A DNA stretch of 64,000 bases from Candidatus Woesearchaeota archaeon. Its GTDB lineage: Archaea > Nanobdellota > Nanobdellia > Woesearchaeales > JABGUJ01. Position numbers and translations under genes: made by a program. Numbering within the stretch: the stretch's first letter is position 1; the number at the start of each line of letters is the position of its first letter. Positions 82 through 62,760 of this stretch are shown in pieces. The stretch is taken from assembly GCA_018646625.1 (NCBI GenBank), contig JABGUJ010000001.1, positions 5,534 through 69,533 on the forward strand, given 5' to 3'. Under the pieces are notes generated by a model. That model was given only the letters and a program-made list of their open reading frames with translations. It searched no databases and was not told where the DNA came from.

Positions 82-1209
82 TTATTCAAATGCTTCCTTC
101 AACTTTGAGAAAAAACCTTTGTTTGCTTGTATATCGTCGGCACTCTCTTTCGCATAGTTTCTAAGTAGCTGTTTTTGTGTTTTCGACAACGATTTTGGAA
201 TTTTAACATCAACCCTAACTTTCTGGTCTCCAACACCAAATCCTCTTAAACTTTTGATACCCAATCCCTTTAATCTGAACATAGTACCAGGTTGAGTTCC
301 AGCAGGTATTTTCATTTTCGCCTTACCATCCAAAGTAGGAACCTCAATCTCATCACCAAGTGTTGCTTGAATAAAACTAATCGGAACATCACTATAAAGA
401 TCTAACCCATCCCTTTGAAAAATCTTATGTGGCTTAACATGAAGAAACGCATACAAATCTCCTGACGGACCGCCTTTTTTGCCAGCCTCACCCTCTCCAG
501 CCAATCTTAGTCTTGAACCCGCATCAACACCAGCAGGAATATCAACACTCAACTTGGTCTTATTCAAAACTGAACCAGAACCATGACATTTACTACAAGG
601 ATTAACGATCTTTTTACCTTCTCCTCCACAAGTAGGACAAGCAGAAGCCGTCTGAAACACACCAAACGGAGTTCTTTGAGATCTAGTTACTTGACCAGAA
701 CCACCACAACCATCACAAGTCACAATATCCGAATCTGACTTTGCACCCTTACCATCACAAGTAGAACAAGTAGTTTCTCGTTCCAAAGAAAGACTCTTAT
801 TCACACCGGAAGCTGCTTCCTCCAATGTGATTTCCAAATCATATCTTAAATCTGAACCTCTTTGTGGACCATGAGCACCTCTACGTCTGCCTCCGCCAAA
901 GAACATATCAAATATATCACCAAAATCAGAAAATCCTCCGAAGTTTGAGAAATCCGAGAAATCAAACCCTCCTGCTCCGCCTTGGAAACCAGAAAAGTCA
1001 GCAGTACCATACTGATCATAGTGCGCTCTTTTCTTATCATCACCTAAAACAGCAGCAGCTTCATTAATTTCTTTAAATTTATCAGAAGCATCATCTTCTT
1101 TATTCAAATCTGGATGAAACTTTTTGGCCAATCGCTTATAGGCCTTCTTAATCTCCTCTTTAGAAGCACCTTTACTCAATCCAAGAGTTTTATAATAATC
1201 ATTACCCAT
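82..1209 (-). CDS. dnaJ: Molecular chaperone DnaJ (Hsp40)
   Basis: N-terminal J-domain with HPD motif (KKFHPDLN), Gly/Phe-rich linker, four CxxCxGxG zinc-finger repeats (CSTCDGKG, CDGCGGSG, CPTCGGEG, CSKCHGSG), C-terminal substrate-binding domain. Confidence 0.92.
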   Translation of the reverse strand: MGNDYYKTLGLSKGASKEEIKKAYKRLAKKFHPDLNKEDDASDKFKEINEAAAVLGDDKKRAHYDQYGTADFSGFQGGAGGFDFSDFSNFGGFSDFGDIFDMFFGGGRRRGAHGPQRGSDLRYDLEITLEEAASGVNKSLSLERETTCSTCDGKGAKSDSDIVTCDGCGGSGQVTRSQRTPFGVFQTASACPTCGGEGKKIVNPCSKCHGSGSVLNKTKLSVDIPAGVDAGSRLRLAGEGEAGKKGGPSGDLYAFLHVKPHKIFQRDGLDLYSDVPISFIQATLGDEIEVPTLDGKAKMKIPAGTQPGTMFRLKGLGIKSLRGFGVGDQKVRVDVKIPKSLSKTQKQLLRNYAKESADDIQANKGFFSKLKEAFE

Positions 1210-1735
1210 TTGCTAATCTCTCTCCAATCGCCTTTAACTCAGTCATAACTTCACTATTACTCTCAACTTCTCCAATCTTTTCACCTTCAGCAACATAGGA
1301 TTCAATTACTTCCATTCCATGTATAACACAAAAATCTTCTAAAACTTCAATTCCTTTCTTAGCAGACTGCTCCATTGCACCCACCATTACAACTGCAACT
1401 TTCTTTCCTTTCCACGCTTGAGATTCGTATTGCGGATTGGATCTATCAAAAAATACTTTTAGATTAGCAGTTACATTGTTAAAATAACAAGGAGAACCAA
1501 TCAATAGAACATCAGCATCCTTAATTTCACCAACCAAAACATCCATATCATCAGAAATAATACATTTCTTGGTATCAGAACAAGATTGATCCCCTTTACA
1601 AAGACCCATCTTAAGATCCTTTAAAGAAACTAACTTAGTTTCTGCTCCAAATTCTTTTGCAGAATTTAATATAACATTAAGCATACTTTCAGTATTCCCT
1701 TCTCTAGGACTTCCACTAATACCTAAAATCTTCAT
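1202..1735 (-). CDS. NADPH-dependent FMN reductase-like flavoprotein (flavodoxin fold)
   Basis: N-terminal MKILGISGSPREGNTE typical of NADPH-dependent FMN reductase / iron-sulfur flavoprotein family; overlaps dnaJ start by 8 nt. Confidence 0.55.
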   Translation of the reverse strand: MKILGISGSPREGNTESMLNVILNSAKEFGAETKLVSLKDLKMGLCKGDQSCSDTKKCIISDDMDVLVGEIKDADVLLIGSPCYFNNVTANLKVFFDRSNPQYESQAWKGKKVAVVMVGAMEQSAKKGIEVLEDFCVIHGMEVIESYVAEGEKIGEVESNSEVMTELKAIGERLANG

Positions 1736-2257
1736 TTAGTTCAACTCCGCGATCAAATCTTCTTCACTCATACCAGCTTGAGCTAAGATCTCAGCAAGAA
1801 TTCTTTTATTAAATTCTAATTTCTCAGAAAAAAAATCAGGTTTAGTTTCTTTTAACTTCGATCCTTCAAAACGTTTATCCAATCCAACCACTTTAGAGTT
1901 CTTAACTAAAGAATCCGCCGCAACCAGAATTTTCTGCTCAACAGTTGTAGGAGTCATTTCTTTATCATAAACATGACATGCAACCACATCAGCCACATCA
2001 CCATACCCAAGTTTCCTTAGAAAGACAGATCCTCGTTTTGCATGATTAAATCCATCATCCTCCACAGTATATCCAACATTTTGCAACAAAGAACCAGCAA
2101 CCACCAGCCCTTTATTCACTTGCACACCTGCAGACAACAACTTTTCAGCGAGCACCAAACTAACCTCAAAGAGTTTCTCAGTATGGTTAAGCAAATCTTC
2201 TTTCATTTCTTGCTTACCCAATAAATCATAACATTCTTGTTCAGTTGGTATCATCAT
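1736..2257 (-). CDS. HD-domain phosphohydrolase (HDIG-like)
   Basis: His/Asp pattern H..HD-like (HTEKLFEVS...AGSLLQNVGY...DSLVKN) resembling small HD/HDIG proteins; abuts upstream gene with no gap. Confidence 0.45.
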   Translation of the reverse strand: MMIPTEQECYDLLGKQEMKEDLLNHTEKLFEVSLVLAEKLLSAGVQVNKGLVVAGSLLQNVGYTVEDDGFNHAKRGSVFLRKLGYGDVADVVACHVYDKEMTPTTVEQKILVAADSLVKNSKVVGLDKRFEGSKLKETKPDFFSEKLEFNKRILAEILAQAGMSEEDLIAELN

Positions 2258-2289
2258 ACACCTCGTAAAAAAACAAAAGTAAAGAAGAA

Positions 2290-4152
2290 TTACTTCTTCT
2301 CATCTTTCTTTTCTTCTTTGAACTGAGCATCTACAACATCTTCTTCCTTCTTCCCATCTTCAGAAGGTGCTTCTTTCTGTTTCTCTGCTTGCTCAGCAGC
2401 GGCCTTTTGATAAAGTTCAGTTGCAGCTTCTTGTGCAACTTTGTTAACTTCCTCAATTTTTGCCTTTAATGCAGCCACATTTTTTTGTTCAGGTTCTAAA
2501 AGCTTTTTAAGTTCATCAATCTTGTCTTTGATTCCCTTAATCTTAGCTTCATCAACCTTACCTTCAAACTCTTTAAGAGTTTTTTCGGTACTGTAAACTA
2601 AAGTGTCAGCTGTATTGATAGTTTCAATCTCCTCTTTGCGCTTTTCATCCTCAGACGCATGAGCTTCAGCTTCTTTCTTCATCTTTTCTACTTCATCCTT
2701 ATTTAATTTAGTTGAAGCAGTCACAGTGATTTGCTGTTGCTTACCAGTTCCAAGATCTTTAGCAGAAACATTCACGATACCATTGGCATCAATATCGAAA
2801 GTAACCTCAACTTGAGGAACACCTCTAGGTGCCGGAGGAATACCAACAAGATCAAAGTTTCCTAACTTCTTATTATCGGCAGCCATTGCTCTTTCACCCT
2901 GCAAAACATGTATAGTTACAGCAGGTTGATTATCGGCAGCAGTTGAAAACACTTGAGATTTTTTTGTAGGAATAGTAGTGTTTCTTTCTATCAACTTAGT
3001 AAACACTCCACCTAACGTTTCAATTCCTAAAGATAAAGGAGTTACATCAAGCAAGAGAACATCTTTAACATCTCCAGCCAATACACCACCCTGGATTGCA
3101 GCACCAACTGATACACATTCCATAGGATCTACTCCTCGCTCTATTTTCTTACCCACTAAACCTTCAACAAACTTCTGTACGATAGGCATCCTAGTAGGAC
3201 CACCAACCATGATAATCTTACTAACATCATTGAGTGTAACCTTTGCATCAGCAACAGCTTGCTCAACTGGTTGTTTACATTTCTGCACAATAGCATCAAT
3301 AAGTTCATCCAATTTAGATCTAGTTATTTTAACAACCAAATGCTTAGGCTCGCCATCTTTCTGAGTAACGAAAGGTAAGTTAACTTCTGTTTCTAAAACA
3401 GTTGACAACTCAATCTTCGCCTTTTCGGCTGCTTCTCTAAGCCTTTGCATAGCAGTATCGTCATCACCCAAATCAATTCCTTCTTGTTTTTTAAATTCAT
3501 CAACCAGGAATTTCATCAGCACTTCATCCATATCTCTACCACCAAGATTAGTATCTCCGGAAGTAGATTTAACTTCAAAAACACCTTCACCAAATTCCAT
3601 TACAGTAACATCCAGCGTACCGCCACCAAAATCAAACACCATAATTTTATGATCTTGATCTGCTTTATCCAAACCATAAGCTAATGCAGCAGCAGTAGGT
3701 TCGTTGATTATTCTAACAACATCTAATCCAGCAATCGCACCAGCATCTTTAGTTGCTTGTCTCTGATTATCATCAAAGTACGCAGGAACAGTGATCACTG
3801 CTTTTTCAACAGAACCACCCAAAAAAGCTTCAGCGTCTTTCTTTATCTTTTGCAAAATAAATGCTGAAATTTGCTGAGGAGTATATTCCTTGCTATTAAC
3901 GGCATATTTGAAAGAAGTACCCATCTTTCTTTTTGCACCAGTGATTGTGTTTTTTGGATTACTCACTGCTTGCCTTCTGGCAGGCTCACCAACTAAAAGT
4001 TGACCATCTTTACTAAAAGCTACAACACTAGGTACAGTTTTACCTGCAACAGTTGCACCTTCAGCACTCGGAATAATTACAGGCTTACCACCCTCCAAAA
4101 CCGATGCGCAAGAGTTACTTGTTCCTAAATCAATACCAATTATTTTTGACAT
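2290..4152 (-). CDS. dnaK: Molecular chaperone DnaK (Hsp70)
   Basis: [14 protein letters not shown] and [11 protein letters not shown] actin-fold ATPase motifs, substrate-binding domain, Lys/Glu-rich C-terminal tail. Confidence 0.96.
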
Positions 4153-4167
4153 TTTCCATTACCTCCA

Positions 4168-4482
4168 TTAAATATTATTGTCCTTGACTTTACTGAAAGA
4201 TTTAGTTCTAAGCTCATCAACAAACTCATGAGTTAGCACCTTTCTACCATTGTCAACGAACTTCGTCACCTCAAGAAGTTTGATCAACTTGTTAAGTTTG
4301 AAGTTATCTCGATCCTCAACAGAGCCCAAGGCAGCATAAAGCGCCTGAATACTTGTCATCAGATCCACCTCAGTCGACTTACAAGTCACCAAAGTATCAA
4401 CAGCATCATCAGAATCTAAAAGATATCTTAAGATAGCCTCGGCCTCCAAAAACATCTTCTTCTTCATCTTCATTTCTTTCAT
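4168..4482 (-). CDS. Hypothetical protein inside the Hsp70 gene string
   Basis: Compact ORF between dnaK and upstream gene, same strand, short spacers; no recognisable motif. Confidence 0.35.
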   Translation of the reverse strand: MKEMKMKKKMFLEAEAILRYLLDSDDAVDTLVTCKSTEVDLMTSIQALYAALGSVEDRDNFKLNKLIKLLEVTKFVDNGRKVLTHEFVDELRTKSFSKVKDNNI

Positions 4483-4483
4483 T

Positions 4484-4993
4484 TTATCTTAAAATCTCAA
4501 AATTCAAAATCTTATTCAACAATGTTTCATCCTTTACTATATTCTTCAACTCACCACCATCCAAAGTTTTACCTCCAGATTTTAGATAAGTTGCATACTG
4601 TCTTATAGACTCAGGATCTTCATCATTAAGAAAATGATTTAACATAAACCAGAGATGTAGTTTTTCCCCATGCTCTGAACAGTTACCAACTTTACATCCT
4701 AATGGTTTAACTTCATGAATAGAACAACCTTTACCGTCAAAAAAAGTACAGGGACCGTAATGTTTTCCTTTCTTTTTATCTAACTTAGGTTTATGCAATG
4801 TCGTATTAAACATTTCAACAGCGTCTAAGCGAATATCTTTAAGACTATCAACAGAGATCTTTAGAAACTCTGCAATTTTATCTAGATCATCCTTAATCAA
4901 AAATCCAGACCCCATTTTACAACAATGATTCTTCCTATCACATTTTTTACCGTGACACAATACATCGTCCGCAGGAGTATTTTTCTTTATCAT
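4484..4993 (-). CDS. Cys-rich putative Fe-S/zinc-chelating protein (YkgJ/UPF0153-like)
   Basis: CHGKKCDRKNHCC cluster plus further Cys/His pairs (CTFFDGKGC, CKVGNCSEH); start overlaps grpE stop by 4 nt (ATGA). Confidence 0.4.
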   Translation of the reverse strand: MIKKNTPADDVLCHGKKCDRKNHCCKMGSGFLIKDDLDKIAEFLKISVDSLKDIRLDAVEMFNTTLHKPKLDKKKGKHYGPCTFFDGKGCSIHEVKPLGCKVGNCSEHGEKLHLWFMLNHFLNDEDPESIRQYATYLKSGGKTLDGGELKNIVKDETLLNKILNFEILR

Positions 4994-5493
4994 TTGCTCA
5001 CCTTGACTTTTGAATGTCTCAACACTTTATCTTTTAACATATAACCAACATGAAGCTCTTCCAAGACCACATCAGAATCATCATCCGACTTTTCACTCAA
5101 AAGCACTTCATGCGAATAAGGATCAAATTTCTTACCAACACACTCAATTTTTCTCAAACCAAAACTCTCAAGAACATCAAAAAACTGACTATAAATTAAC
5201 TTTAAACCTTTTGTAACTTGAGTCTCTTTACCATCCAAGTTCTTTAACGACAACTCAAAACTATCAAGCACAGGTAAAAACTTTTTAATAAAATCTCCAC
5301 AAGCATATTCAGAAAAATCCTTCTGCTCCTTCTCAACTCTTCGTTTATAATTCTCAAATTCAGCTTGTAATCTTTTCAAAGATTCAGTAAGCTCCGCTAT
5401 CTTCATATCTTTTTCATCAATCTTGATTTTAACATCAGATTTTTTACTAGAACATTTGCATGTTCCATGTCCACTGCCACATTTTTTTGTCAT
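4990..5493 (-). CDS. grpE: Nucleotide exchange factor GrpE with Cys-rich N-terminal extension
   Basis: LQAEFENYKRR and FLPVLDSFE GrpE motifs; extra CGSGHGTCKCS N-terminus; AAGGTGGGG SD-like sequence 7 nt upstream of ATG on minus strand. Confidence 0.8.
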   Translation of the reverse strand: MTKKCGSGHGTCKCSSKKSDVKIKIDEKDMKIAELTESLKRLQAEFENYKRRVEKEQKDFSEYACGDFIKKFLPVLDSFELSLKNLDGKETQVTKGLKLIYSQFFDVLESFGLRKIECVGKKFDPYSHEVLLSEKSDDDSDVVLEELHVGYMLKDKVLRHSKVKVSK

Positions 5494-5619
5494 GTAACCC
5501 CACCTTAAAAAAATAAATGAAAAACAAATTCACCTAACTACTCTTCCTCTTCTTCCTCGCATTCATCGAAGTCAGATTGGTTTTTCGTCAAATGTATACG
5601 TTTCATTCGCTTCACCCCT

Positions 5620-5636
5620 GTTGACCTTAAGTCAAC
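5620..5636. promoter_or_regulatory. Perfect 17-bp palindrome GTTGACCTTAAGTCAAC in the divergent grpE/regulator promoter region; related half-site repeat GTTGAACTCAAC at 5645-5656
   Basis: Read directly from the sequence; lies between divergent starts at 5493 (-) and 5797 (+), with TATA-like AATATATAAA and TTATATAGATA nearby. Confidence 0.4.
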
Positions 5637-5796
5637 CTGAACTAGTTGAACTCAACACCAATATATAAATCTTTCGGAAAAAGTAACATATCAACAAGAA
5701 GACCTGAAATCAACCAAGGCCCAAAAGTGGACAAAAATGCCCTTTCAGACATGAAAATAAGAAAGAATTATATAGATAACCCCATTAACCAACCAC

Positions 5797-6204
5797 ATGA
5801 AATTCATTAGCCACAAAATCACGATAGTGAGCAGCAACAAACCAGCAGAAAGCACATTAAACGATGAACTTCAATGGCTCGGCACAACTTTAGGCTTATT
5901 TGGTAACAGAGACAAAGACAATTCTTGCTTTAGAATATTTATCGAGCTTCTAAAAAGCACAAGAAGAAACAAAGCAATGAGCAGCGATGCAATCTCACTA
6001 AAGCTAAATCTTTCTCGAGGAACGGTTGTACATCACCTAAACAAAATGATGCAATCAGGAATAGTATTAAGAGAAGGTAACACATACGCATTAAGAGCAA
6101 ACACACTACAGGCAGTGATCGAAGAAGTACAAAAAGACGTTAACAGAACATTTTACGATATGATGCAAATTGCTAAAGAAATAGATGATGGCCTAGGCAT
6201 ATAG
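5797..6204 (+). CDS. Winged-helix transcriptional regulator (putative heat-shock operon regulator)
   Basis: HTH-like segment SLKLNLSRGTVVHHLNKMMQSGIVLREG; divergent from grpE across the palindromic region. Confidence 0.4.
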   Translation: MKFISHKITIVSSNKPAESTLNDELQWLGTTLGLFGNRDKDNSCFRIFIELLKSTRRNKAMSSDAISLKLNLSRGTVVHHLNKMMQSGIVLREGNTYALRANTLQAVIEEVQKDVNRTFYDMMQIAKEIDDGLGI

Positions 6205-20307: not shown

Positions 20308-21246
20308 ATGAGAAGGAAAGTTATACAGCAAAATCCCACCACATTAGTAGTCTCATTACCAGCAAAATGGGCAAAAGCAAACGAAGTAACAAAAGGCGAT
20401 GAGTTGGACATTTCGGAACAAGAAGATAAACTAATTGTAAGCATAGCAGATCAATCAAAAAGAAAAGAAAGGACCGTCACATTAAATTTTAATAAAAAAC
20501 ATTGGGAAATCCCAAATAAAAAATATAAATATGTTCAAAGAATTCTTGCAGCACCATACAAAGCAGGATATGATGAAATCATAATAAGATCCGATTGCAA
20601 AGAAGTTTTAGAATACATCGAAAAAAGAGTTGAAACGTTCATAGGAATAGAAATAATTGACCAAGGAAGAGATTATTTCAAAATAAAAAACCTGGTTTCA
20701 GGGTTAGATGAAGAGTTTGATAATGTCTTTAGAAGAACATTACTAATAACAAATCGATTTGCCACAGAATCATTGGAAATAATAAAATCAAAAGAATATG
20801 ATGATCTAAAAAATCTTCTAAGACTAGAAAAAACCCATAACAAGATAACTGATTTCTGTAAAAGACTATTGGCAGCAAAAGACTACGATTCACCAAAGAA
20901 AACAAGATACCTTTATGCACTCATTGCAGAGAATGAAAGACTTGTCGACGAGTATAAAGACATCTGCAAATACATATTGAATAGTAAAAATCCAGAAATC
21001 AGCAAGGAAATTGTTACACTTCTAGAAGATACAAACAAATTAGTAGTACAATACTCAAATTCATTCTTTAAATTTGATCTCGAAAGCATCCACACATTAA
21101 CAAAAGGCTTTTGTAAAGAAGAAGAAACTGCGCTGCAATTATTCGATAAACCATCAACAAAAGATAAGAGAATAGTACATCACATTTTAAACATATTAAC
21201 AAAGACATACGAAATGGGCGAAGCCTTTCTAGAAATGAATATCTAA
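20308..21246 (+). CDS. AbrB/SpoVT-domain plus PhoU-like domain protein (putative regulator)
   Basis: N-terminal swapped-hairpin motif TTLVVSLPAKWAKANEVTKGDELDI; C-terminal helical PhoU-like repeats. Confidence 0.5.
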   Translation: MRRKVIQQNPTTLVVSLPAKWAKANEVTKGDELDISEQEDKLIVSIADQSKRKERTVTLNFNKKHWEIPNKKYKYVQRILAAPYKAGYDEIIIRSDCKEVLEYIEKRVETFIGIEIIDQGRDYFKIKNLVSGLDEEFDNVFRRTLLITNRFATESLEIIKSKEYDDLKNLLRLEKTHNKITDFCKRLLAAKDYDSPKKTRYLYALIAENERLVDEYKDICKYILNSKNPEISKEIVTLLEDTNKLVVQYSNSFFKFDLESIHTLTKGFCKEEETALQLFDKPSTKDKRIVHHILNILTKTYEMGEAFLEMNI

Positions 21247-23399
21247 GCACATCTTAGTAAATCCGATACTTCAGACCCAACAGAACAAAGTGCCTTATCT
21301 TCTCTAAATTTATGTGCAACTCGTTCTAACAAACCCTCTGGCGCATCAACATAATCACCAGAAAGATGAGCTGCCAGAACAGATCTCGACACGCCAGCAC
21401 CTTCAACAACACCCGCAACATACTCAGCACCTTCTCTGATTCGCGCATAAAACTCTCTGCTAATTAAACCTGTTAATTGCCTTTGAGTTGCTTCGTAGTT
21501 CTCGACGTTTGAATTAAACCTTTCAAGAACATCAAACACTTTTTGCTTAACTGCCAAAACCTCATCAAGAGATGCCTCAGGCCCAAGAACAGCATAATTT
21601 ACGACAATGTCTTCCGCAATCGACATCCTTTCAGCCGTAGAATAAAACCGTTCTTTAGGCGCGGGCAATGAATATAAAATATTTGTACTTTCAACTCTAT
21701 GAGGAGTAAACAAACCCTCAACATCTTGAGTTTTCAAATCAATACCATAGTGAACCCCTAATTCAATATCTTTATTATGCCAAAAAACTCTATCCATCCA
21801 ACCAGTATTCTCAGCATACATTTCATCAAAAGCATCTTTAATCTTAATCGATAATCCCTTTGCACGATCCGAAGAAGTATTCCCTCTAGAATCTAAGAAG
21901 GCTCTAAACTCAATTTCAACACCAAACTCCGCAAACAACTCTTCAACTTCCCGCTTAGTATCTCCACCTTTTACCCAATCATCATAAACATAAACCTTCT
22001 CTCCAGGCTTGACATCACCAAACCTAGATCTAAAAGCATCTAACTGGAGCTGCTTCGCATTAGAATTCAACATAGAATAAATCCAAAAATGTCTTTCCTC
22101 CATCACATCTAAAACAGGAGCTAGCTCATCTCTCGCAACACGCATCTTCTCTTCATCACCGCTCTGCCTATACTGTTTCTCTTTTTTTCGTAAAGCAGAA
22201 ATATCTCCTAATGCTTTCCGAACAGCACCAACATCACCAGAATAACTATCTGCAAAATCATCAGTTCTAACATAAGCTTCAGTCACTTTTTTTGCAGAAG
22301 TAAATTTAAAATAATCCACACTTGCATCTAACTTAACATCTAAAGTCGCAGACATTGCTTGCATCATCTTACCAATAGGTCTTGCACCTCTATCTGCAAT
22401 GAAAACCCTATCAACACCATTCTGAATTATATCTTCCAAATGCGGAAGAACAGCAAAAGCAAGACGACGAGCATCAATGTAATGCTCTCGTTGTTGTTGT
22501 CTCTTTTGTTGAGTCGGCGCAGCCACCACAGATCTAACATTTCTTGAATAGTCGCCCAAAGTATGATAGACAAAACCAATAGGAAGACCATTCTTCTCAG
22601 AAAAATCTCGCACTAAATCTAAATCATCACTAATACGATCAAGATTATCTTGCAATCCACATAAATGTTCAGCAGGAGTACCAACCACCGTACTGTAATT
22701 ACCATCATCAGTACAATCTTCGAATTGATCAATCAAACCTTCAACATTATCACGCACTGCAACCATAAAAGCAGGAGAACCATAATCAGTAAGAAATTTA
22801 CGATCTCTATCATCAAGAAAGTTATCATACAAATCCCAGAACTCAGGTTCCACAGGAGTAAAAGAAGAAGCAGTTTGTCTTATCAGATCAGAAAAATTCT
22901 CATCAGGATCCCGAACATAACATTCTGCCAATTGTACAAAAAAAGCAGTCCGATTATAATCCATGTTGTAAAGCAAAATATCATGCACAATACCACTAGC
23001 ATTAGTAACTTCTTTTCCAGCAAGAATCTCTTCCATAGAATCACTCAAACCATAACGTCGCAAATGATCTTTATAATCAGAAGAATTACCACCACAAACA
23101 CAGTGACCACTTAAGTCATCACAACCAACATAATTATCCTCTTTAATATTCTCTTGGTCATCTGCAAAGAAGTTACCGAAAAAATAAGCAGTCGTACAAT
23201 GATCACCATCACGCTGAGCATAAACATTAGCAAGCTTTTGAAGAACTTCTATTTTATCAAGTGGAGATTCCTGAGAAATATTACGCCTCATCTCCCAGCC
23301 TGAACTGACAGGAGCACTAGGATTACATCCAAACAACATACTAGCAAGTACAGCAGTGCTAATAACTCTACCAAATCGACTGAAAGGATTTAAAGCCAT
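21243..23399 (-). CDS. Large secreted lipoprotein of unknown function (718 aa), Asp/Arg-rich
   Basis: Signal peptide with lipobox SMLFGCNPS; composition unlike the Lys-rich housekeeping proteins. Confidence 0.5.
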   Translation of the reverse strand: MALNPFSRFGRVISTAVLASMLFGCNPSAPVSSGWEMRRNISQESPLDKIEVLQKLANVYAQRDGDHCTTAYFFGNFFADDQENIKEDNYVGCDDLSGHCVCGGNSSDYKDHLRRYGLSDSMEEILAGKEVTNASGIVHDILLYNMDYNRTAFFVQLAECYVRDPDENFSDLIRQTASSFTPVEPEFWDLYDNFLDDRDRKFLTDYGSPAFMVAVRDNVEGLIDQFEDCTDDGNYSTVVGTPAEHLCGLQDNLDRISDDLDLVRDFSEKNGLPIGFVYHTLGDYSRNVRSVVAAPTQQKRQQQREHYIDARRLAFAVLPHLEDIIQNGVDRVFIADRGARPIGKMMQAMSATLDVKLDASVDYFKFTSAKKVTEAYVRTDDFADSYSGDVGAVRKALGDISALRKKEKQYRQSGDEEKMRVARDELAPVLDVMEERHFWIYSMLNSNAKQLQLDAFRSRFGDVKPGEKVYVYDDWVKGGDTKREVEELFAEFGVEIEFRAFLDSRGNTSSDRAKGLSIKIKDAFDEMYAENTGWMDRVFWHNKDIELGVHYGIDLKTQDVEGLFTPHRVESTNILYSLPAPKERFYSTAERMSIAEDIVVNYAVLGPEASLDEVLAVKQKVFDVLERFNSNVENYEATQRQLTGLISREFYARIREGAEYVAGVVEGAGVSRSVLAAHLSGDYVDAPEGLLERVAHKFREDKALCSVGSEVSDLLRCA

Positions 23400-29683: not shown

Positions 29684-31033
29684 GTGAATTTTATTAACGA
29701 CAACAATCATGCATTTTATTTAGTAATGATAGTTTCTATAGTTGCAATTGTAGGAATATTTATTATTGTTTCTAGGGGACCAAACACATTAGAGAAAGAT
29801 ATTGCTGGAGAGGCAACTAGAGCAATCACAGGAGAGATCATAAAAAAACCATTAATGACGCATGTAAATGATGCGTGGATTTACTCCAACATGGAAGTCT
29901 TAGAACTTGGGAAGACTGTCAAAATTCACAGAACAAATGTACTTTTCAAGAAAAAATTAACACCCGAGATAAAAAAAATAAGAGACGCAAAAGCAACAAG
30001 ATTTGTTAGAATACCAAAGTTCATGATCTGTCTAAACAACATATGCAATAACTATAAATTGAGCGATAAAATTGTGATTGAGGAAATAACATATACGCTA
30101 AGCAGTACAGACAACAAAATTAGATTAATCTCTAACAATATTGATGATTGGGATATTCTTCCTCAGATAGCAACACAAATATTTGAACAGACAGAAACCC
30201 ATAATATTCCCGTGATAGAACCGGCAGGCCATTTTAAGACCTATATAGAAGAGAATGTCGATCAAAGGGTCCCTAAATACTTACAAGTTGGCATAATAGT
30301 AGATGACACCGACTACACAATAACTGATGAAGAAATAGAGGACTTCATCAGTCTTATGGACAAAGAACTGTCGAAAAAAACAAACATAAATGTGAAATTA
30401 CACGGAATAAGACATACAAATTTTGGAATAACGGCAGATAATTATTATAACGAAAACAATGATAATCCACCAGATTATGTCATTATCTTTAGAAGCAATA
30501 CAATCTCATTAAGTTATGGAGGTTACGCAATAACCTCCTCTAACCTCATCGAAGAAGGATACTGTAATAATTTTGTTTCTCCTTACCAGAGTGCAAATCT
30601 TATTTGGGGTGCTGTAATTGATTGGACTCATATATATTCCGGATGTGGTTATGACTTAGAGCATTACAAAAGCACAGGAGAGTTAAATCATATAAGTAAC
30701 GTAAGTTTAGATGATGGTTCATGCAAAAACCAAGCAGGGATAGCTTGTGTATTTAACGACATTGTTGAGTACTATGCCTGCAGTAATAAGGATCCCTCCC
30801 ACCCCTATCTACAAAGCAAGATGTCTTTTTTAGCATTTGTAGCCATACATGAATTATTACACCACTTCGGCAATACCCATAATTACGATCATTTTGGAAC
30901 AGACACATGTGATGATATCATGGGAAGCGAAGATTACAAGCAAAGCTGGAATCATCTTTCGTCTTTTGGCATGTGCCCCTATACCATCGACAATCTCGCA
31001 ACAAGTTATAATTATCTGCGAATATGTAGTTAA
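29684..31033 (+). CDS. Membrane-anchored putative zinc metallopeptidase with metzincin-type HExxHxxGxxH motif
   Basis: N-terminal TM anchor; near the C-terminus HELLHHFGNTH followed by Cys/Met-containing segment (TDTCDDIMGS...MCPY); otherwise no similarity recognised. Confidence 0.4.
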   Translation: MNFINDNNHAFYLVMIVSIVAIVGIFIIVSRGPNTLEKDIAGEATRAITGEIIKKPLMTHVNDAWIYSNMEVLELGKTVKIHRTNVLFKKKLTPEIKKIRDAKATRFVRIPKFMICLNNICNNYKLSDKIVIEEITYTLSSTDNKIRLISNNIDDWDILPQIATQIFEQTETHNIPVIEPAGHFKTYIEENVDQRVPKYLQVGIIVDDTDYTITDEEIEDFISLMDKELSKKTNINVKLHGIRHTNFGITADNYYNENNDNPPDYVIIFRSNTISLSYGGYAITSSNLIEEGYCNNFVSPYQSANLIWGAVIDWTHIYSGCGYDLEHYKSTGELNHISNVSLDDGSCKNQAGIACVFNDIVEYYACSNKDPSHPYLQSKMSFLAFVAIHELLHHFGNTHNYDHFGTDTCDDIMGSEDYKQSWNHLSSFGMCPYTIDNLATSYNYLRICS

Positions 31034-39993: not shown

Positions 39994-42282
39994 TTATTTT
40001 CTTTTTGCTTCTCTTTCTAAATCAGCATAATATGCTTGAGGTCCACCAATCTCAGAAACCTTATAGAATAAATCGTCATTTAAACCTGGAAGATAAACTT
40101 CTACTCTCGCGCCTTTAGTTGGTCCATTAGTAATATATCGAATTAAACCGCCCAATCCCCCTGTAATCATCTCGTGACTCGCAATTGCTCCAATACTATG
40201 ACCATCTTTTTTAGAAGAAGGTACCTCTAAACCGTCTGTCAATTTTACAGCTAGCTTAGCATCAAGATCTCCTGATTGAGTTATAATGGTCTTAACCAAA
40301 TCAGATTTTCCACTTAGAGTGTACGGATTTTCTTCAGCAGTAATAAATACTTTACCCCGCACAGATGCCTCAGCGGCGTTATCAACTAAATTTAACATCG
40401 CCGCCATCAATACATCTCGCTCAACATTAACATAGATATGTTCAGGTACTTGATTAATTATTTGTGCATGTCCTCGTGGAGATAAGTGTGCAACAATCTC
40501 ATCAATAAATCCTTTATAGTCAATAATAACAAACTTACCTTTGCGTTCTGTACCCGCCATAAGATCTTCAAGAAGATCTCTAAGTTTCACAGCTTGTTGA
40601 CAATTGAAAGCATCCTTCTTAATATTAGACGGAACTTCATTCGTTGGCGCACTAACCAAATAATCAAGACCATCATACAAAAAGCCATCATCATTATATC
40701 GGTCACCCGCAATCAAGACCAAATCTCCCAAATAAGAAGACAAAGAATCTCTTAAACATCTAAACGCATTAATCGTCAAAGGATTTGCTAAGTTTTTCCC
40801 ATCATGCGCTTTCTTCTTAACTCGCTTTCTTTCAACGAAAGCAGCTTCTTGAGTAGCAGTTAATCTCTCAACTTCCGCATCAGCCTCTGCAGCTCTTCGA
40901 GCAGCCTCGGCCTCACTAACTCGAGCACCCATAGTCTCCAACTGAGACTCAACCCTCTCAGTAACCAATCTAGATCTTTCAACAAGAGACTGACCCATTC
41001 GCGCCGAGTACGCTTGATTAGCTTCATCAATCTTTCCTGCAAGTACAACACGCGCCGCCTTTCGAGAAAAAGCTCTCCAAAATCTATTTGTTGGCTTATA
41101 GTAATAATGATCAAAACAAGCAGGACAATTATAAAAAACCCCTCTGCGAAAGATTCTCTTACCATGCAATTTTAAATCTTCATCCAGTTCACAGAGTAAA
41201 CCAACCTGCAATCCAGGCATCCCAATCAATCTTGGATCTAATTGTTGAGAATAGTTAGATAACACCCCAAAATTTCGAGAAGTCGATCCCCCTGCCACTT
41301 GCGGTGCAAGTGCATGTTCTAAGGTTTCAAGATCATACCCCCAACCCCGATCAACAGGGCGTTGCGGATCAAGCAATCTAACATACCTTCCAAAATATTT
41401 ACCATCTAAGAAAACAGACGTACCGTCTCTGCGCAGTTCATAACCAGTACCAAAATAAGTATTTAATCGATCAACAGTATCTTCTACACGAGATTGAGAA
41501 TGAGTTGCAACATGCTTAAATGGTTTAGCCCTCCACCCGAAAATAGGAATAGAAGAAACTAAAGGAGAAACAGACATCATACCTTGAGTAAACCATTCGT
41601 CCCAAAGACTATTTCTAACAGAATATTCACCCATCTGAACAGATGCTCCGGGTTCAGGACCGCCAAGATCAACATGTCTCATATCAAGAACTGTATTAAA
41701 TCTTTCACTCAAAACATGAGTCAGTGCAACAATGTTTTCAGGAATAGAAAAAGCAGTAGATTGATCAACATCTCTTACATGACGATGCGTCTCAGTAGTT
41801 ACAGACAAAGTAATTGAAGGATCGGGAGGATCAAGCAATGCAGCCCATTGCAACAGATTATGCATAAAAACATCTTCCATAACTTCATAAGGAATTCCTT
41901 TGAACGGAGAAGAAAACAAACGAATTAATCTTTCATCACTACACTCTAAAACATCATCCTTTTCTGCAGCCAAAGCATATATTTGAAACAATCTATTTTC
42001 TCTCAATCCATCCCAAAAAAAACTCACAGAAGAATACCAATCAACAAAAGAAAAATCACTTAACACCCGCCCCCCTTCCATTTTTTTAAGGTTAGGTCTT
42101 TTTTCGTACTTACCAACAACTTTGGCCCTCATAACATCCAGATCTATAAGTAAACTTCTACCAGAAATTGTTTTAGAAAGTTTATGCTTAATTGCCTTAC
42201 GATCTTCACCCTCTCTCAGAACCCTATCTAGAACATCATCTAGAGAGCTTGCGCTCGCTCCTCCTACTGCACTATGAACCAT
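39994..42282 (-). CDS. Large cytoplasmic protein with C-terminal GHKL/histidine-kinase-like ATPase domain (762 aa)
   Basis: C-terminal N-box-like MLNLVDNAAEAS, G-box-like GGLGGLI and ...EVYLPG ending; Arg-rich coiled-coil EAEAARRAAEADAEVERL; no TM segments; N-terminal 500 aa unrecognised. Confidence 0.45.
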   Translation of the reverse strand: MVHSAVGGASASSLDDVLDRVLREGEDRKAIKHKLSKTISGRSLLIDLDVMRAKVVGKYEKRPNLKKMEGGRVLSDFSFVDWYSSVSFFWDGLRENRLFQIYALAAEKDDVLECSDERLIRLFSSPFKGIPYEVMEDVFMHNLLQWAALLDPPDPSITLSVTTETHRHVRDVDQSTAFSIPENIVALTHVLSERFNTVLDMRHVDLGGPEPGASVQMGEYSVRNSLWDEWFTQGMMSVSPLVSSIPIFGWRAKPFKHVATHSQSRVEDTVDRLNTYFGTGYELRRDGTSVFLDGKYFGRYVRLLDPQRPVDRGWGYDLETLEHALAPQVAGGSTSRNFGVLSNYSQQLDPRLIGMPGLQVGLLCELDEDLKLHGKRIFRRGVFYNCPACFDHYYYKPTNRFWRAFSRKAARVVLAGKIDEANQAYSARMGQSLVERSRLVTERVESQLETMGARVSEAEAARRAAEADAEVERLTATQEAAFVERKRVKKKAHDGKNLANPLTINAFRCLRDSLSSYLGDLVLIAGDRYNDDGFLYDGLDYLVSAPTNEVPSNIKKDAFNCQQAVKLRDLLEDLMAGTERKGKFVIIDYKGFIDEIVAHLSPRGHAQIINQVPEHIYVNVERDVLMAAMLNLVDNAAEASVRGKVFITAEENPYTLSGKSDLVKTIITQSGDLDAKLAVKLTDGLEVPSSKKDGHSIGAIASHEMITGGLGGLIRYITNGPTKGARVEVYLPGLNDDLFYKVSEIGGPQAYYADLEREAKRK

Positions 42283-44167: not shown

Positions 44168-45766
44168 TCACACATATTTTACCTTTATCCCATGTTTATG
44201 AGGATACTTTTCAAACTCATACAAATTAATAATCAAAGGGCTTTTGCCAGTTTTCTTCTGCAATATTGAAAAATTAAGTGGAAAGTCAGTACTTAATTTA
44301 GTAAAATAACGCATAACAGCAGCATGTGCTTTTTTCTCTAACGCTTTACTTTTACGCTGCTTTTTCTTCAATTGCACATCAATCTGCAAGAAAGGATTAT
44401 AGTTCTTATCATAAACTTCTTGTAATCTAAACACACCCGAAAACTGTTTCAAAAATTGTTTATTAGAAAAAATAACATCATGAATATATTCAGGATAAAT
44501 CAATTGACCTATAAAATTCACAGTACCATCAGATCTACCTACAACAAAAACAAAAGGAGTTGGAAGTTCAAGTTTCAAAGAAACACCGTGCTCTTTTAAG
44601 ATCTTATTAACTTTATCATTAGTTAACAATCCGCCAACGTCATGTATATTATACCTAATCAAAGGCATCATCGCCTTCAGATCACAGTTAGTAAATATCA
44701 ATTCATCTTTCTTATTAGTTTCAATGAAATACTTAGTAGGATCATACTGAAACAAAGTCGGCAAAACAGAAGCATACGTTCCATAAATTGCTTTTCGCAA
44801 CTTTTTATCATTCATACACAAATAACGAATATAAGCAGAATCTTTTGTTTCATTAACACCAGTTATTCCCAAATCTGATGCACCAAACGCAGAAAAAATA
44901 AATCCCTTACGATCATCTCGCATAGATGTGCCTAAAATAGTAGACATGTGCTGCCTCCATCCTTCAGTAAAAGGTTCAGCACCAAGAAGCAAGTTAATTT
45001 TATATCGCTTAAAATTAATCTTTTTCCGTACGCCTTCTTCAAATAAATTCTTAGTAAAATGAGGAGTACCAGCAAAGATAAATTGATCATATTCATCTTT
45101 CATATCTTTGAAAATATCAAGACTTTCCTCCATGTCCGCACCAGGAGCAATAACTGAACACTTAGAATCAGCAATCATCAACAAATCCACACCACTAACC
45201 CAAGATCCCAATGCAAAAGTGTCAACTAACAAGGTTTTTTCTTTAGTAATATTAAATAACAAATCCAGTCCTAGAGCCGCAAAGTTCTTTGACTCCTTTT
45301 GCTCTTCTCTAGATTTCGCCCAAGTACTTGCCTTGCCACTATACCCGGAACTTCTAGCCAATAAACTACATTTAGAAACATCCATCCCAACACAAAGATC
45401 ACTTAAACCTTTAGAAGTTTTAACATAATCATTCTTTGTCATCATAGGAACATACTTCACAAAGTCATCAAAATCCGCAACATCAGATATTATCACATTC
45501 CTAGAAGATAAAAAGTTTTCATAATGAGAAATATTCAAAGCTGCACGCTTAAACGCTGCCACCACTTTGCGCTTCGCCATAATATCAAGATCTTTAGGTG
45601 AAGAATTCAGAATCAAAGATCTTAAGAAATCAATATTATGAGCATTTCTACGCATAAAACTATCCAGCACAGCAGCTGGAAGATACCTCACCACTTTTGA
45701 CAACATAATACTATACTCCAAAAGAAGGTATTTAAAGGTTTTTAACCAAAGGACAGAGAAATTCAA
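44168..45766 (-). CDS. Putative adenylate-forming enzyme (PaaK/F390-synthetase/GH3-like)
   Basis: SSGYSGKAS resembles the SSGTTGKP P-loop of phenylacetate-CoA-ligase-like enzymes; 532 aa. Confidence 0.35.
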   Translation of the reverse strand: MNFSVLWLKTFKYLLLEYSIMLSKVVRYLPAAVLDSFMRRNAHNIDFLRSLILNSSPKDLDIMAKRKVVAAFKRAALNISHYENFLSSRNVIISDVADFDDFVKYVPMMTKNDYVKTSKGLSDLCVGMDVSKCSLLARSSGYSGKASTWAKSREEQKESKNFAALGLDLLFNITKEKTLLVDTFALGSWVSGVDLLMIADSKCSVIAPGADMEESLDIFKDMKDEYDQFIFAGTPHFTKNLFEEGVRKKINFKRYKINLLLGAEPFTEGWRQHMSTILGTSMRDDRKGFIFSAFGASDLGITGVNETKDSAYIRYLCMNDKKLRKAIYGTYASVLPTLFQYDPTKYFIETNKKDELIFTNCDLKAMMPLIRYNIHDVGGLLTNDKVNKILKEHGVSLKLELPTPFVFVVGRSDGTVNFIGQLIYPEYIHDVIFSNKQFLKQFSGVFRLQEVYDKNYNPFLQIDVQLKKKQRKSKALEKKAHAAVMRYFTKLSTDFPLNFSILQKKTGKSPLIINLYEFEKYPHKHGIKVKYV

Positions 45767-61914: not shown

Positions 61915-62358
61915 ATGAGTTTAACTTTGCAATTTGTGCCGTATGGTGAAATAGAAAATCTTGATTCCACCGCAAAGGTAAACAAACTTATCAAGATAGT
62001 AAAAGAAGAAAAGATCATCTTACTAGAAGGAAGAATTGAGAAAAACGAAGAAACCCTTCTTATCAAAAAAACTATGGAAGAGATTGGTCCAAAGTTTAAA
62101 GGAATTGAACTATTTGTGATGTATCCTAAGGATGAAGAAAGCGATCCTATACAGAGATTAAAGAAAAGTGTAGTAGATATGTTACTAGGAAATAGACAGG
62201 GATTAACCATCATAGGCCCTGCAACAATCGTTAAAGAAATAAGAAAAGATCCAGATAAGATACAATTACTAACAAAGAACCTATCAAAAAGAAAGAAAAC
62301 ACCTGCATCAAGATCAAAGTCTACTAAAAAAAAGACTAAGACTAAAAAAAGGAAATAA
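61915..62358 (+). CDS. Conserved archaeal protein, DUF2073-like (assignment from memory)
   Basis: 147-aa ORF 19 nt downstream of the GTPase, Lys-rich C-terminal tail. Confidence 0.4.
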   Translation: MSLTLQFVPYGEIENLDSTAKVNKLIKIVKEEKIILLEGRIEKNEETLLIKKTMEEIGPKFKGIELFVMYPKDEESDPIQRLKKSVVDMLLGNRQGLTIIGPATIVKEIRKDPDKIQLLTKNLSKRKKTPASRSKSTKKKTKTKKRK

Positions 62359-62370
62359 AGGTTTAGATAA

Positions 62371-62760
62371 ATGCCACATCAGTGCGTCAGGTGTAGTGCC
62401 CTATATGATGACGGGGCCCAAGAAATTCTACAAGGTTGCAGTAAGTGCTCTGCCAAAGTTTTCTTCTATATAAGGAAAGACCATTTAAAGAAAACTCAAG
62501 AACAAGTTGAAAAACTCTCTCCCAAAGATAAAGAGCAGATAGAAAAAGACGTAAAAGAAATGGTGGGCAACACCGAACAAGACGCCCCAGTAATTCTCGA
62601 TCTCGAATCCATCAGAGTTAAAAAGCCAGGTAAATTTGAAATAGACTTAGTTAAATTATTCAAAGACGATCCTTTGATCTATAAACTTGCAGATGGTAAA
62701 TACATGATTGACCTTCCAAAAACATTCAAGAAAGGTCTTGACAAATTTGAAGAAAACTAA
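62371..62760 (+). CDS. Zn-ribbon protein, DUF2072-like
   Basis: N-terminal CVRC...CSKC zinc ribbon; 12 nt after the upstream gene. Confidence 0.45.
   Translation: MPHQCVRCSALYDDGAQEILQGCSKCSAKVFFYIRKDHLKKTQEQVEKLSPKDKEQIEKDVKEMVGNTEQDAPVILDLESIRVKKPGKFEIDLVKLFKDDPLIYKLADGKYMIDLPKTFKKGLDKFEEN

Follow-up and report, generated by a model that had tools for sequence, protein, structure and literature searches.

Upstream of grpE in a 64-kb stretch of Candidatus Woesearchaeota DNA (referred to here, over its full length, as the window) lies a 17-bp palindrome, GTTGACCTTAAGTCAAC, at positions 5620-5636. Its retention in related genomes marks this palindrome as a control site in the DNA, deeply conserved, where transcription of the grpE-dnaK-dnaJ operon is predicted to start. 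We conclude that it is probably the operator of a dedicated repressor of this Hsp70 operon, and that the protein most likely to bind it is the winged-helix product of the divergent gene at 5797-6204. The regulator family and the operator appear to be new, and the job that they would perform is of a known type.

The chaperone operon and the divergent gene for its putative regulator

Pfam and NCBIfam matches, together with the recurrence of the same gene string in related loci, outline a presumed regulated operon on the minus strand at 82-5493 of the window, whose GC content is ~35%. From its promoter-proximal end, the operon comprises grpE (4990-5493), genes for a CxxCxxCC protein (4484-4993) and a 104-aa protein (4168-4482), dnaK (2290-4152), genes for an HD-like protein (1736-2257) and an FMN reductase (1202-1735), and dnaJ (82-1209), all on the minus strand. 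Across a gap of 303 bp, the gene for a 135-aa winged-helix protein, the putative repressor, occupies 5797-6204 on the plus strand. Profiling of 30 ORFs identified no further chaperone genes in the window, and a scan for sigma-70 promoters and terminators returned nothing relevant, as expected for an archaeon.

The extra genes set between grpE, dnaK and dnaJ, which encode the CxxCxxCC Zn/Fe-binding protein, the 104-aa protein without a family, the HD-like protein and the NADPH-dependent FMN reductase, are found again in many Woesearchaeota loci (window 82-5493; L001-L080) and hint at a link to redox. A small ORF of 22 codons, MKRIHLTKNQSDFDECEEEEEE, lies at 5538-5606 on the minus strand behind a Shine-Dalgarno-like GGGGTGA, and is the first ORF after the operator, upstream of grpE. 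In the close strain L215, whose spacer is ~92% identical, this ORF is open and of equal length (MKRIYLTENLSDFDECEEEEEE), with three synonymous and three non-synonymous codon changes; it did not turn up in species further away. Its product may be a leader peptide or a micro-protein. Elsewhere in the window, adjacent genes at 61915-62760 match the origin-associated proteins OapB and OapC, which suggests that a replication origin may be close to the window's 3' end, and the ORFs at 21243-23399, 39994-42282, 44168-45766 and 29684-31033 (718, 762, 532 and 449 aa, respectively) have no Pfam match at E<=1e-4.

The palindrome and its promoter

The predicted core promoter of the chaperone operon occupies 5662-5677 on the minus strand and consists of a BRE (CCGAAAGA, 5677-5670) followed by a TATA box (TTTATATA, 5669-5662). 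Beyond the TATA box, the same strand carries 3 nt, a 12-nt proximal element, 8 nt and then the palindrome, giving a TATA-to-palindrome gap of 25 nt in the window. Archaeal transcription normally starts ~22-27 nt after the TATA box, so the palindrome begins at about +1 to +4 of the predicted transcript (its span at this promoter being ~+4 to +20), and the proximal element falls between the TATA box and the start. Sites at the archaeal transcription start are typical of repressors such as Phr (PMC9133787). The same geometry is found in relatives: in 64 of 69 loci a TATaTAAA..tTTc.g block and the operator are separated by 21-27 nt, most often by 23 nt (40 loci). Anchoring 65 species on the palindrome gives the plus-strand consensus TtttGTTGACTTtAAgTCAAC.aaa....ggTAA.aTcAACtA.TATaTAAA..tTTc.gcaaa..t.tatAtAta.

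The first-pass annotation of this DNA had reported the palindrome and a second, related word in the gap between grpE and the winged-helix gene, and both words do lie there. It had also called the 17-mer perfect, which does not hold. GTTGACCTTAAGTCAAC has perfect 6-bp arms around a 5-nt centre (6+5+6) and makes seven of eight possible pairs; pair 7/11 is C/A, hence the palindrome is imperfect, and it has one mismatch to the family consensus GTTGACTTWAAGTCAAC, which across species is a perfect 8+1+8 palindrome. On in-window statistics alone the palindrome is within chance and not remarkable, as GTTGA-N1-9-TCAAC is seen twice per window against 0.57 expected and 12 of 100 shuffles equal that count. 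Nowhere in the window are GTTGA/TCAAC pentamers denser than in the 100 nt around the palindrome (six, against a background of 0.38 per 100 nt). With 28.3 of 29.9 bits on the family matrix, GTTGACCTTAAGTCAAC alone exceeds 10 bits in the window; the next best site reaches 9.5. A second pentamer cluster at ~56.95-57.08 kb, inside a 406-aa Metallophos gene, was rejected as coincidental; its four TCAAC and one GTTGA are mostly in one orientation and include no GTTGA-N1-9-TCAAC arrangement.

The related word, GTTGAACTCAAC, is the promoter-proximal element at 5645-5656 (no strand assigned), 8 nt past the palindrome; at ~-17 to -6 it lies downstream of the TATA box and ahead of the predicted start. 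It reads as a 5+2+5 palindrome in the window, and the close strain L215 (~92% identical) has ATTAAACTCGAC in its place. Across species, the 12-nt element reads ggTAAnaT(C/A)AAC at 3 nt from the TATA box, with a variable left half and an ending that is TCAAC in 25, TAAAC in 18 and TCTAC in 7 of 65 loci. The palindromic form of the element therefore does not persist. We read 5645-5656 as a conserved promoter-proximal element, not a second operator of the same kind, with a palindromic form that is lineage-specific. Its centre lies 22.5 bp, about two helical turns, from that of the operator, and it is possibly an auxiliary half-site.

A degenerate third copy, GAAGACCTGAAATCAAC, lies between the two promoters at 5698-5714 (no strand assigned; repeat D1). 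It agrees with the palindrome at 13 of 17 positions and scores below 9 bits on the family matrix; it is kept in L215, as is the entire region between both TATA boxes, and we consider its function doubtful. The ~85-bp stretch at 5680-5760 between the TATA boxes, which contains this copy and an ATCAAC word, is missing from most relatives. Compared with L215 it has three changes in ~100 nt, and is better kept than the leader region.

On the plus strand, the predicted regulator promoter at 5760-5775 consists of a BRE (AGAAAGA, 5760-5766) and a TATA box (ATTATATA(G), 5767-5775). The TATA box ends 22-23 nt (more generally ~22-24 nt) before the ATG, an arrangement that is conserved in relatives and indicates a leaderless or near-leaderless mRNA. 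This promoter and the minus-strand promoter form an inverted repeat (repeat I2), and their opposed TATA boxes are ~14 bp apart in most species versus ~95 bp in the window. In six relatives a second 17-mer sits just past the regulator's own TATA box, which points to autoregulation there. The earlier suggestion that the palindrome controls both directions finds no such basis in the window, where no operator overlaps the regulator's own promoter and the geometry fits grpE-dnaK only.

Conservation and specificity across genomes

The site is conserved across species, specific to chaperone promoters and fixed in its promoter geometry. A scan of species-representative genomes located the regulator gene in at least 588 places, and 80 loci with proteins 50-63% identical were kept. 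Of 79 upstream regions, 61 contain GTTGA-N7-TCAAC, with a length of 17 bp every time. At the positions left free by this search pattern, T8 and A10 are conserved at 99% and T7 and A11 at 81%, and position 6 is C or T. We defined a chaperone-type neighbour as a divergent grpE, hsp20 or 167-aa HExxH protein gene upstream of the regulator gene. Such a neighbour is present in 67 of the 78 species-level Woesearchaeota/Nanoarchaeota loci with enough upstream DNA, and a site fitting GTTGACTTWAAGTCAAC, one-base variants allowed, is present in all 67. This bears out the proposal of an operator-like element at a heat-shock promoter beside a divergent winged-helix regulator, and gives the element a conserved, fixed place. 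Among loci without a divergent chaperone-type gene the site is present in none of eight, and their regulator has the same recognition helix, indicating that adjacency is not obligatory and that autoregulation is not general.

The 532,845 bp that these loci cover contain 75 matrix hits scoring 12 bits or more, every one of them within these promoter regions, and the chance expectation of GTTGA-N7-TCAAC in that DNA, estimated from base composition, is ~0.6. In five loci (L018, L019, L045, L073 and L003) a gene lies between the regulator and grpE, and the site remains at the grpE/hsp20 promoter. The intergenic columns beside the palindrome are unconserved in the 65-species anchored alignment, and in strain L215 the 17-mer is 100% intact within altered immediate flanks. 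We therefore take the palindrome to be real because it is conserved across genomes, not because of its in-window statistics. The first-pass annotation had also suggested looking for the palindrome upstream of other chaperone genes (thermosome, prefoldin, sHsp); neither the 64-kb window nor 533 kb of related flanks contains another site. In many relatives, hsp20 is the first gene after the operator. The gene in that position is grpE in most species and Hsp20 in at least 11 (Pfam E 1e-15 to 1e-18). In several relatives (L013, L026, L071, L085, L087, L174 and L199), it encodes a ~165-aa HEYIH (HExxH) protein without a Pfam family, possibly a metalloprotease involved in stress.

When metagenome contigs were scanned without bias for the exact consensus 17-mer, 120 matches were returned, of which 68 adjoin the regulator, grpE or hsp20. 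The remaining 52 were set aside as mostly unrelated (GC 0.26-0.68, many coding), and several of them are one recurring viral-contig sequence that is present in IMG/VR too. One 1132-bp contig (L097, Ga0307928_10182987) carries four tandem 17-bp operators at 484-580, spaced by 25, 30 and 25 nt; a G-run and a T-run follow each copy, and a 105-aa ORF without assigned function comes after the array. No regulator, grpE or hsp20 gene is present on this contig, and the iteron-like array might represent a mobile element, serve as a decoy or mark another regulated promoter.

Variants of the operator were also observed. L049 has GTCGATTTAAGGTCGAC at 1269-1285, in the usual place downstream of the grpE-side TATA box, with the symmetric changes T3 to C and A15 to G; the TCGAC variant is seen in one arm in L017 as well. 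In four loci where the regulator is not beside grpE (L036, L061, L069 and L075), another palindrome, TTTCTATATAGAAA, is kept ~50-60 nt upstream of the regulator ATG.

The winged-helix protein and its distant homologues

The 135-aa protein matches Pfam HTH_24 (23.1 bits, cut-off 21.9) and HTH_5 (22.7 bits, cut-off 22), both marginal passes, and by fold and profile it belongs to the ArsR/SmtB-like winged-helix superfamily. It scores 17 bits on the NCBIfam metalloregulator model, for which the cut-off is 55, and C44 is its only nearly invariant Cys. None of the curated Pfam or NCBIfam families corresponds to it. An identical protein is annotated in Candidatus Woesearchaeota assemblies (e.g. GCA_018658585.1), and more than 430 close relatives, ~135 aa each, come nearly all from Woesearchaeota/Nanoarchaeota. 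The winged HTH spans residues 40-99 and its recognition helix, LSRGTVVHHL, is invariant among close relatives; the N-terminal portion contains the conserved segment xKITIIxxRKP...ELQWLGxSLGLFxxRDKDKSCFRIF. An AF2 model (pLDDT 83) shows an H-H-H-strand-strand winged helix with a short helix at 21-31 and a long C-terminal helix of 30 residues at 104-133, and its N-terminus is poorly ordered though conserved in sequence. The nearest structures are ArsR, MarR and CzrA.

Pairing with chaperone genes is conserved in the regulator family. An exhaustive profile search gave 284 clusters (50% identity) at E<=1e-10. Cultured methanogens have members that are 28-35% identical and carry SRVNHHIRNL as their recognition helix, unlike that of the close relatives. 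All seven methanogen-type loci examined have the gene divergent from groES-groEL (L201, L203, L207, L208, L210, L211 and L212), which come from Methanosalsum zhilinae, Methanoculleus, Methanoregula, two Methanospirillum and two metagenome contigs whose origin is inferred from similarity. In one of the seven clpB is added, and in one (Methanoregula) hsp20 lies downstream of the regulator; at a further DPANN-like locus the homologue is divergent from hsp20. That the family is found time and again beside chaperone genes, of three different systems, is the best indirect argument for a role in regulating proteostasis genes.

The GTTGAC palindrome is absent from the methanogen-type loci. A GATATCA/TGATATCA word recurs towards the regulator side in these loci, and in Methanoculleus GCGTCC-N8-GGACGC adjoins the groES TATA box; seven loci are too few to settle either word as the methanogen operator.

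Discussion

The link between regulator and operator is one of association, and the position of the TATA box gives the predicted transcription start; binding by the 5797 product, repression and a stress signal are what we propose. A homodimer of the 135-aa protein would bind the two GTTGAC half-sites, 23-25 nt downstream of the operon TATA box, at the start. Binding of TBP and TFB would still be possible, and recruitment of RNA polymerase or promoter clearance would be blocked. Heat or protein-folding stress would take the repressor off the DNA and allow the operon to be transcribed, much as Phr is released under stress (PMC9133787). It is speculative, but conceivable, that a chaperone (DnaK)-titration loop would act through the basic-hydrophobic N-terminal stretch K-I-T-I-I-x-x-R-K-P.

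Alternative explanations for the palindrome and its neighbour differ in how well they accommodate the comparative data. A chance palindrome without function, which the unremarkable in-window statistics would allow, is refuted by the conservation, specificity and fixed geometry of the site over 67 species-level loci and 68 metagenome contigs, and we give it practically no weight. It is unlikely, though considerably less so, that a real operator is bound by another transcription factor encoded elsewhere and that the winged-helix gene has another role. Eight loci have the regulator and no nearby site, and once the two are apart the site stays with grpE and not with the regulator, both of which would fit such a factor. 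However, the regulator adjoins the chaperone promoter in most informative loci (67 of 78), an invariant recognition helix is paired with an invariant operator, and distant homologues adjoin chaperone operons too. In addition, the second copy over the regulator's own start in six lineages is a classic autoregulation pattern. We consider it similarly unlikely that the winged-helix protein activates under stress, or has a dual role in which it represses the chaperone promoter and activates its own; the first-pass annotation had allowed for either a repressor or an activator. The common layout does put the operator centre ~50 bp upstream of the regulator TATA box, which is a typical position for an archaeal activator, yet this shared layout is lost in the window, with its TATA boxes ~95 bp apart, and the site lies downstream of the chaperone TATA box at the start, a location that is repressive in characterised archaeal systems (Phr; PMC9133787).

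A role mainly at the RNA level is slightly less probable again; in that case the palindrome would form a hairpin at the 5' terminus of the operon mRNA and act on its stability, sense temperature or be recognised by an RNA-binding protein. The predicted start is within a few nucleotides of the palindrome, so the palindrome would be transcribed, and RNAfold predicts a 7-bp stem at the 5' end of the mRNA. The half-site variants C6/A12 and C7/A11 would be U-G wobbles on the mRNA strand, and most variants are G-U compatible. However, covariation among 66 operators is 0.152, compared with a shuffled mean of 0.151, and 223 of 500 shuffles score as high. The absence of covariation beyond column conservation indicates a constraint on sequence, as for a protein-DNA site. 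The arms keep an invariant sequence among loci whose proteins are only 50-60% identical, with the single symmetric double change in L049, and 99% conservation extends to T8 and A10, which would lie in the loop. Moreover, the hairpin would not cover the Shine-Dalgarno sequence, the predicted folding energy of the leader is ordinary (z = -0.54), and nothing in Rfam matched 5300-6000 at E<=1. Where a regulator promoter has a second copy, this copy sits between the TATA box and a leaderless ATG, which also argues against a hairpin. A DNA operator for a dedicated repressor, with the winged-helix protein as its most likely ligand, is thus the reading that we prefer.

The homologues beside chaperone genes suggest a new family of archaeal chaperone-operon regulators. 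In its broadest form, which we put forward tentatively and at a little short of an even chance, the proposal is that winged-helix repressors of ~135 aa constitute an undescribed archaea-wide family, with the 5797 protein as its founding member, controlling horizontally acquired bacterial-type chaperone operons. These operons would be grpE-dnaK-dnaJ in Woesearchaeota/Nanoarchaeota (hsp20 being optional) and groES-groEL in Methanomicrobia (clpB or hsp20 being optional); every lineage would have an operator of its own, and chaperone feedback would be possible via the N-terminal segment. If true, this would add a third heat-shock regulator to those characterised in archaea, and the first that is not of the Phr/HSR1 family, and it would show how archaea have rewired bacterial chaperone operons onto BRE/TATA promoters.

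Our analysis defines the operator precisely, shows that the architecture of its promoter is fixed and points to a candidate repressor that is conserved in hundreds of uncultured Woesearchaeota/Nanoarchaeota. The operator is a sharp genomic marker of the heat-shock promoter in metagenome-assembled DPANN genomes. Homologues lie beside groESL in cultured Methanoculleus, Methanospirillum, Methanoregula and Methanosalsum, which makes the hypothesis directly testable. DPANN archaea have been reported to have DnaK/GroEL systems, with no mention of a regulator (PMC8204110), and our literature search found no description of the motif or of regulators for archaeal DnaK/GroESL, DPANN or methanogen chaperone operons.

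Comparison with known heat-shock regulators

The first-pass annotation had stated that the palindrome matches neither the bacterial CIRCE element nor a known archaeal heat-shock operator, and searches for the CIRCE, HAIR and HSR1 motifs, which were negative or at chance level, agree. The HrcA-CIRCE system resembles the one proposed here in having a dedicated repressor, an inverted-repeat operator at the dnaK/groE promoter or start, and a regulator gene linked to grpE-dnaK-dnaJ. However, CIRCE (TTAGCACTC-N9-GAGTGCTAA) has no matches in the 64 kb with up to three mismatches, and none of the 10 ORFs of the locus contains an HrcA domain. The regulator here is instead a small ArsR-like winged-helix protein, and the promoter is of the archaeal BRE/TATA type. 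HspR-HAIR, a system of Actinobacteria and Helicobacter, relies on a repressor of the MerR family for which DnaK is the co-repressor; it represses the dnaK operon through an inverted repeat, and the half-sites are alike (TTGAGT in HAIR versus TTGACT here). The HAIR element CTTGAGT-N7-ACTCAAG is not at this promoter, HAIR-like matches in the window are at chance level, and the regulator here matches HTH_24, HTH_5 and ArsR-like models, not MerR. HspR-HAIR nevertheless offers a model for chaperone feedback, the link to DnaK being speculative in our case. Small archaeal proteins of the ArsR, Lrs14 and Sso10a types (ST1889/2d1h, Sso10a/1r7j, MM 3r0a) are similar only in the generic winged-helix core; what sets the 135-aa family apart is its conserved N-terminal segment of 45 residues and its chaperone-operon context.

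The only characterised archaeal heat-shock regulators are Phr of Pyrococcus furiosus and HSR1 of Archaeoglobus fulgidus (PMC9133787, PMC5852551), both of which belong to arCOG01684 (PMC5852551). The narrow family profile does not match the Phr structure (PDB 2p4w) at E<=1. A broader profile does so at E=0.0048, but the match covers just 38 HTH residues, and generic ArsR/MarR proteins score at least as well. As Phr is matched over the HTH only and Phr and HSR1 are both in arCOG01684, the 135-aa protein is not detectably a member of the Phr/HSR1 family, and the Phr chain is also longer, at 202 aa. With regard to the operators, that of Phr (TTTA..T..C.....G..A..TAAA) and GTTGACTTWAAGTCAAC are alike only in their A/T-rich flanks (TTTn...nAAA). 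The HSR1 motif CTAAC-N5-GTTAG, which is absent from the window with up to one mismatch, shares an equal arm-N5-arm layout with GTTGAC-N5-GTCAAC here. At the level of design, the systems are alike in a winged-helix protein, a palindromic operator downstream of the TATA box and, in some lineages, signs of autoregulation, with hsp20 among the known or presumed targets. The 23-25-nt gap from TATA box to operator would also place the operator here across the predicted transcription start, the position from which Phr/HSR1-type regulators block recruitment of RNA polymerase. The hsp20 gene follows HSR1 and likewise follows the Methanoregula homologue. The systems would differ in their targets, in that Phr and HSR1 target cdc48 or the thermosome, whereas the regulators described here are paired with bacterial-type DnaK and GroESL operons.
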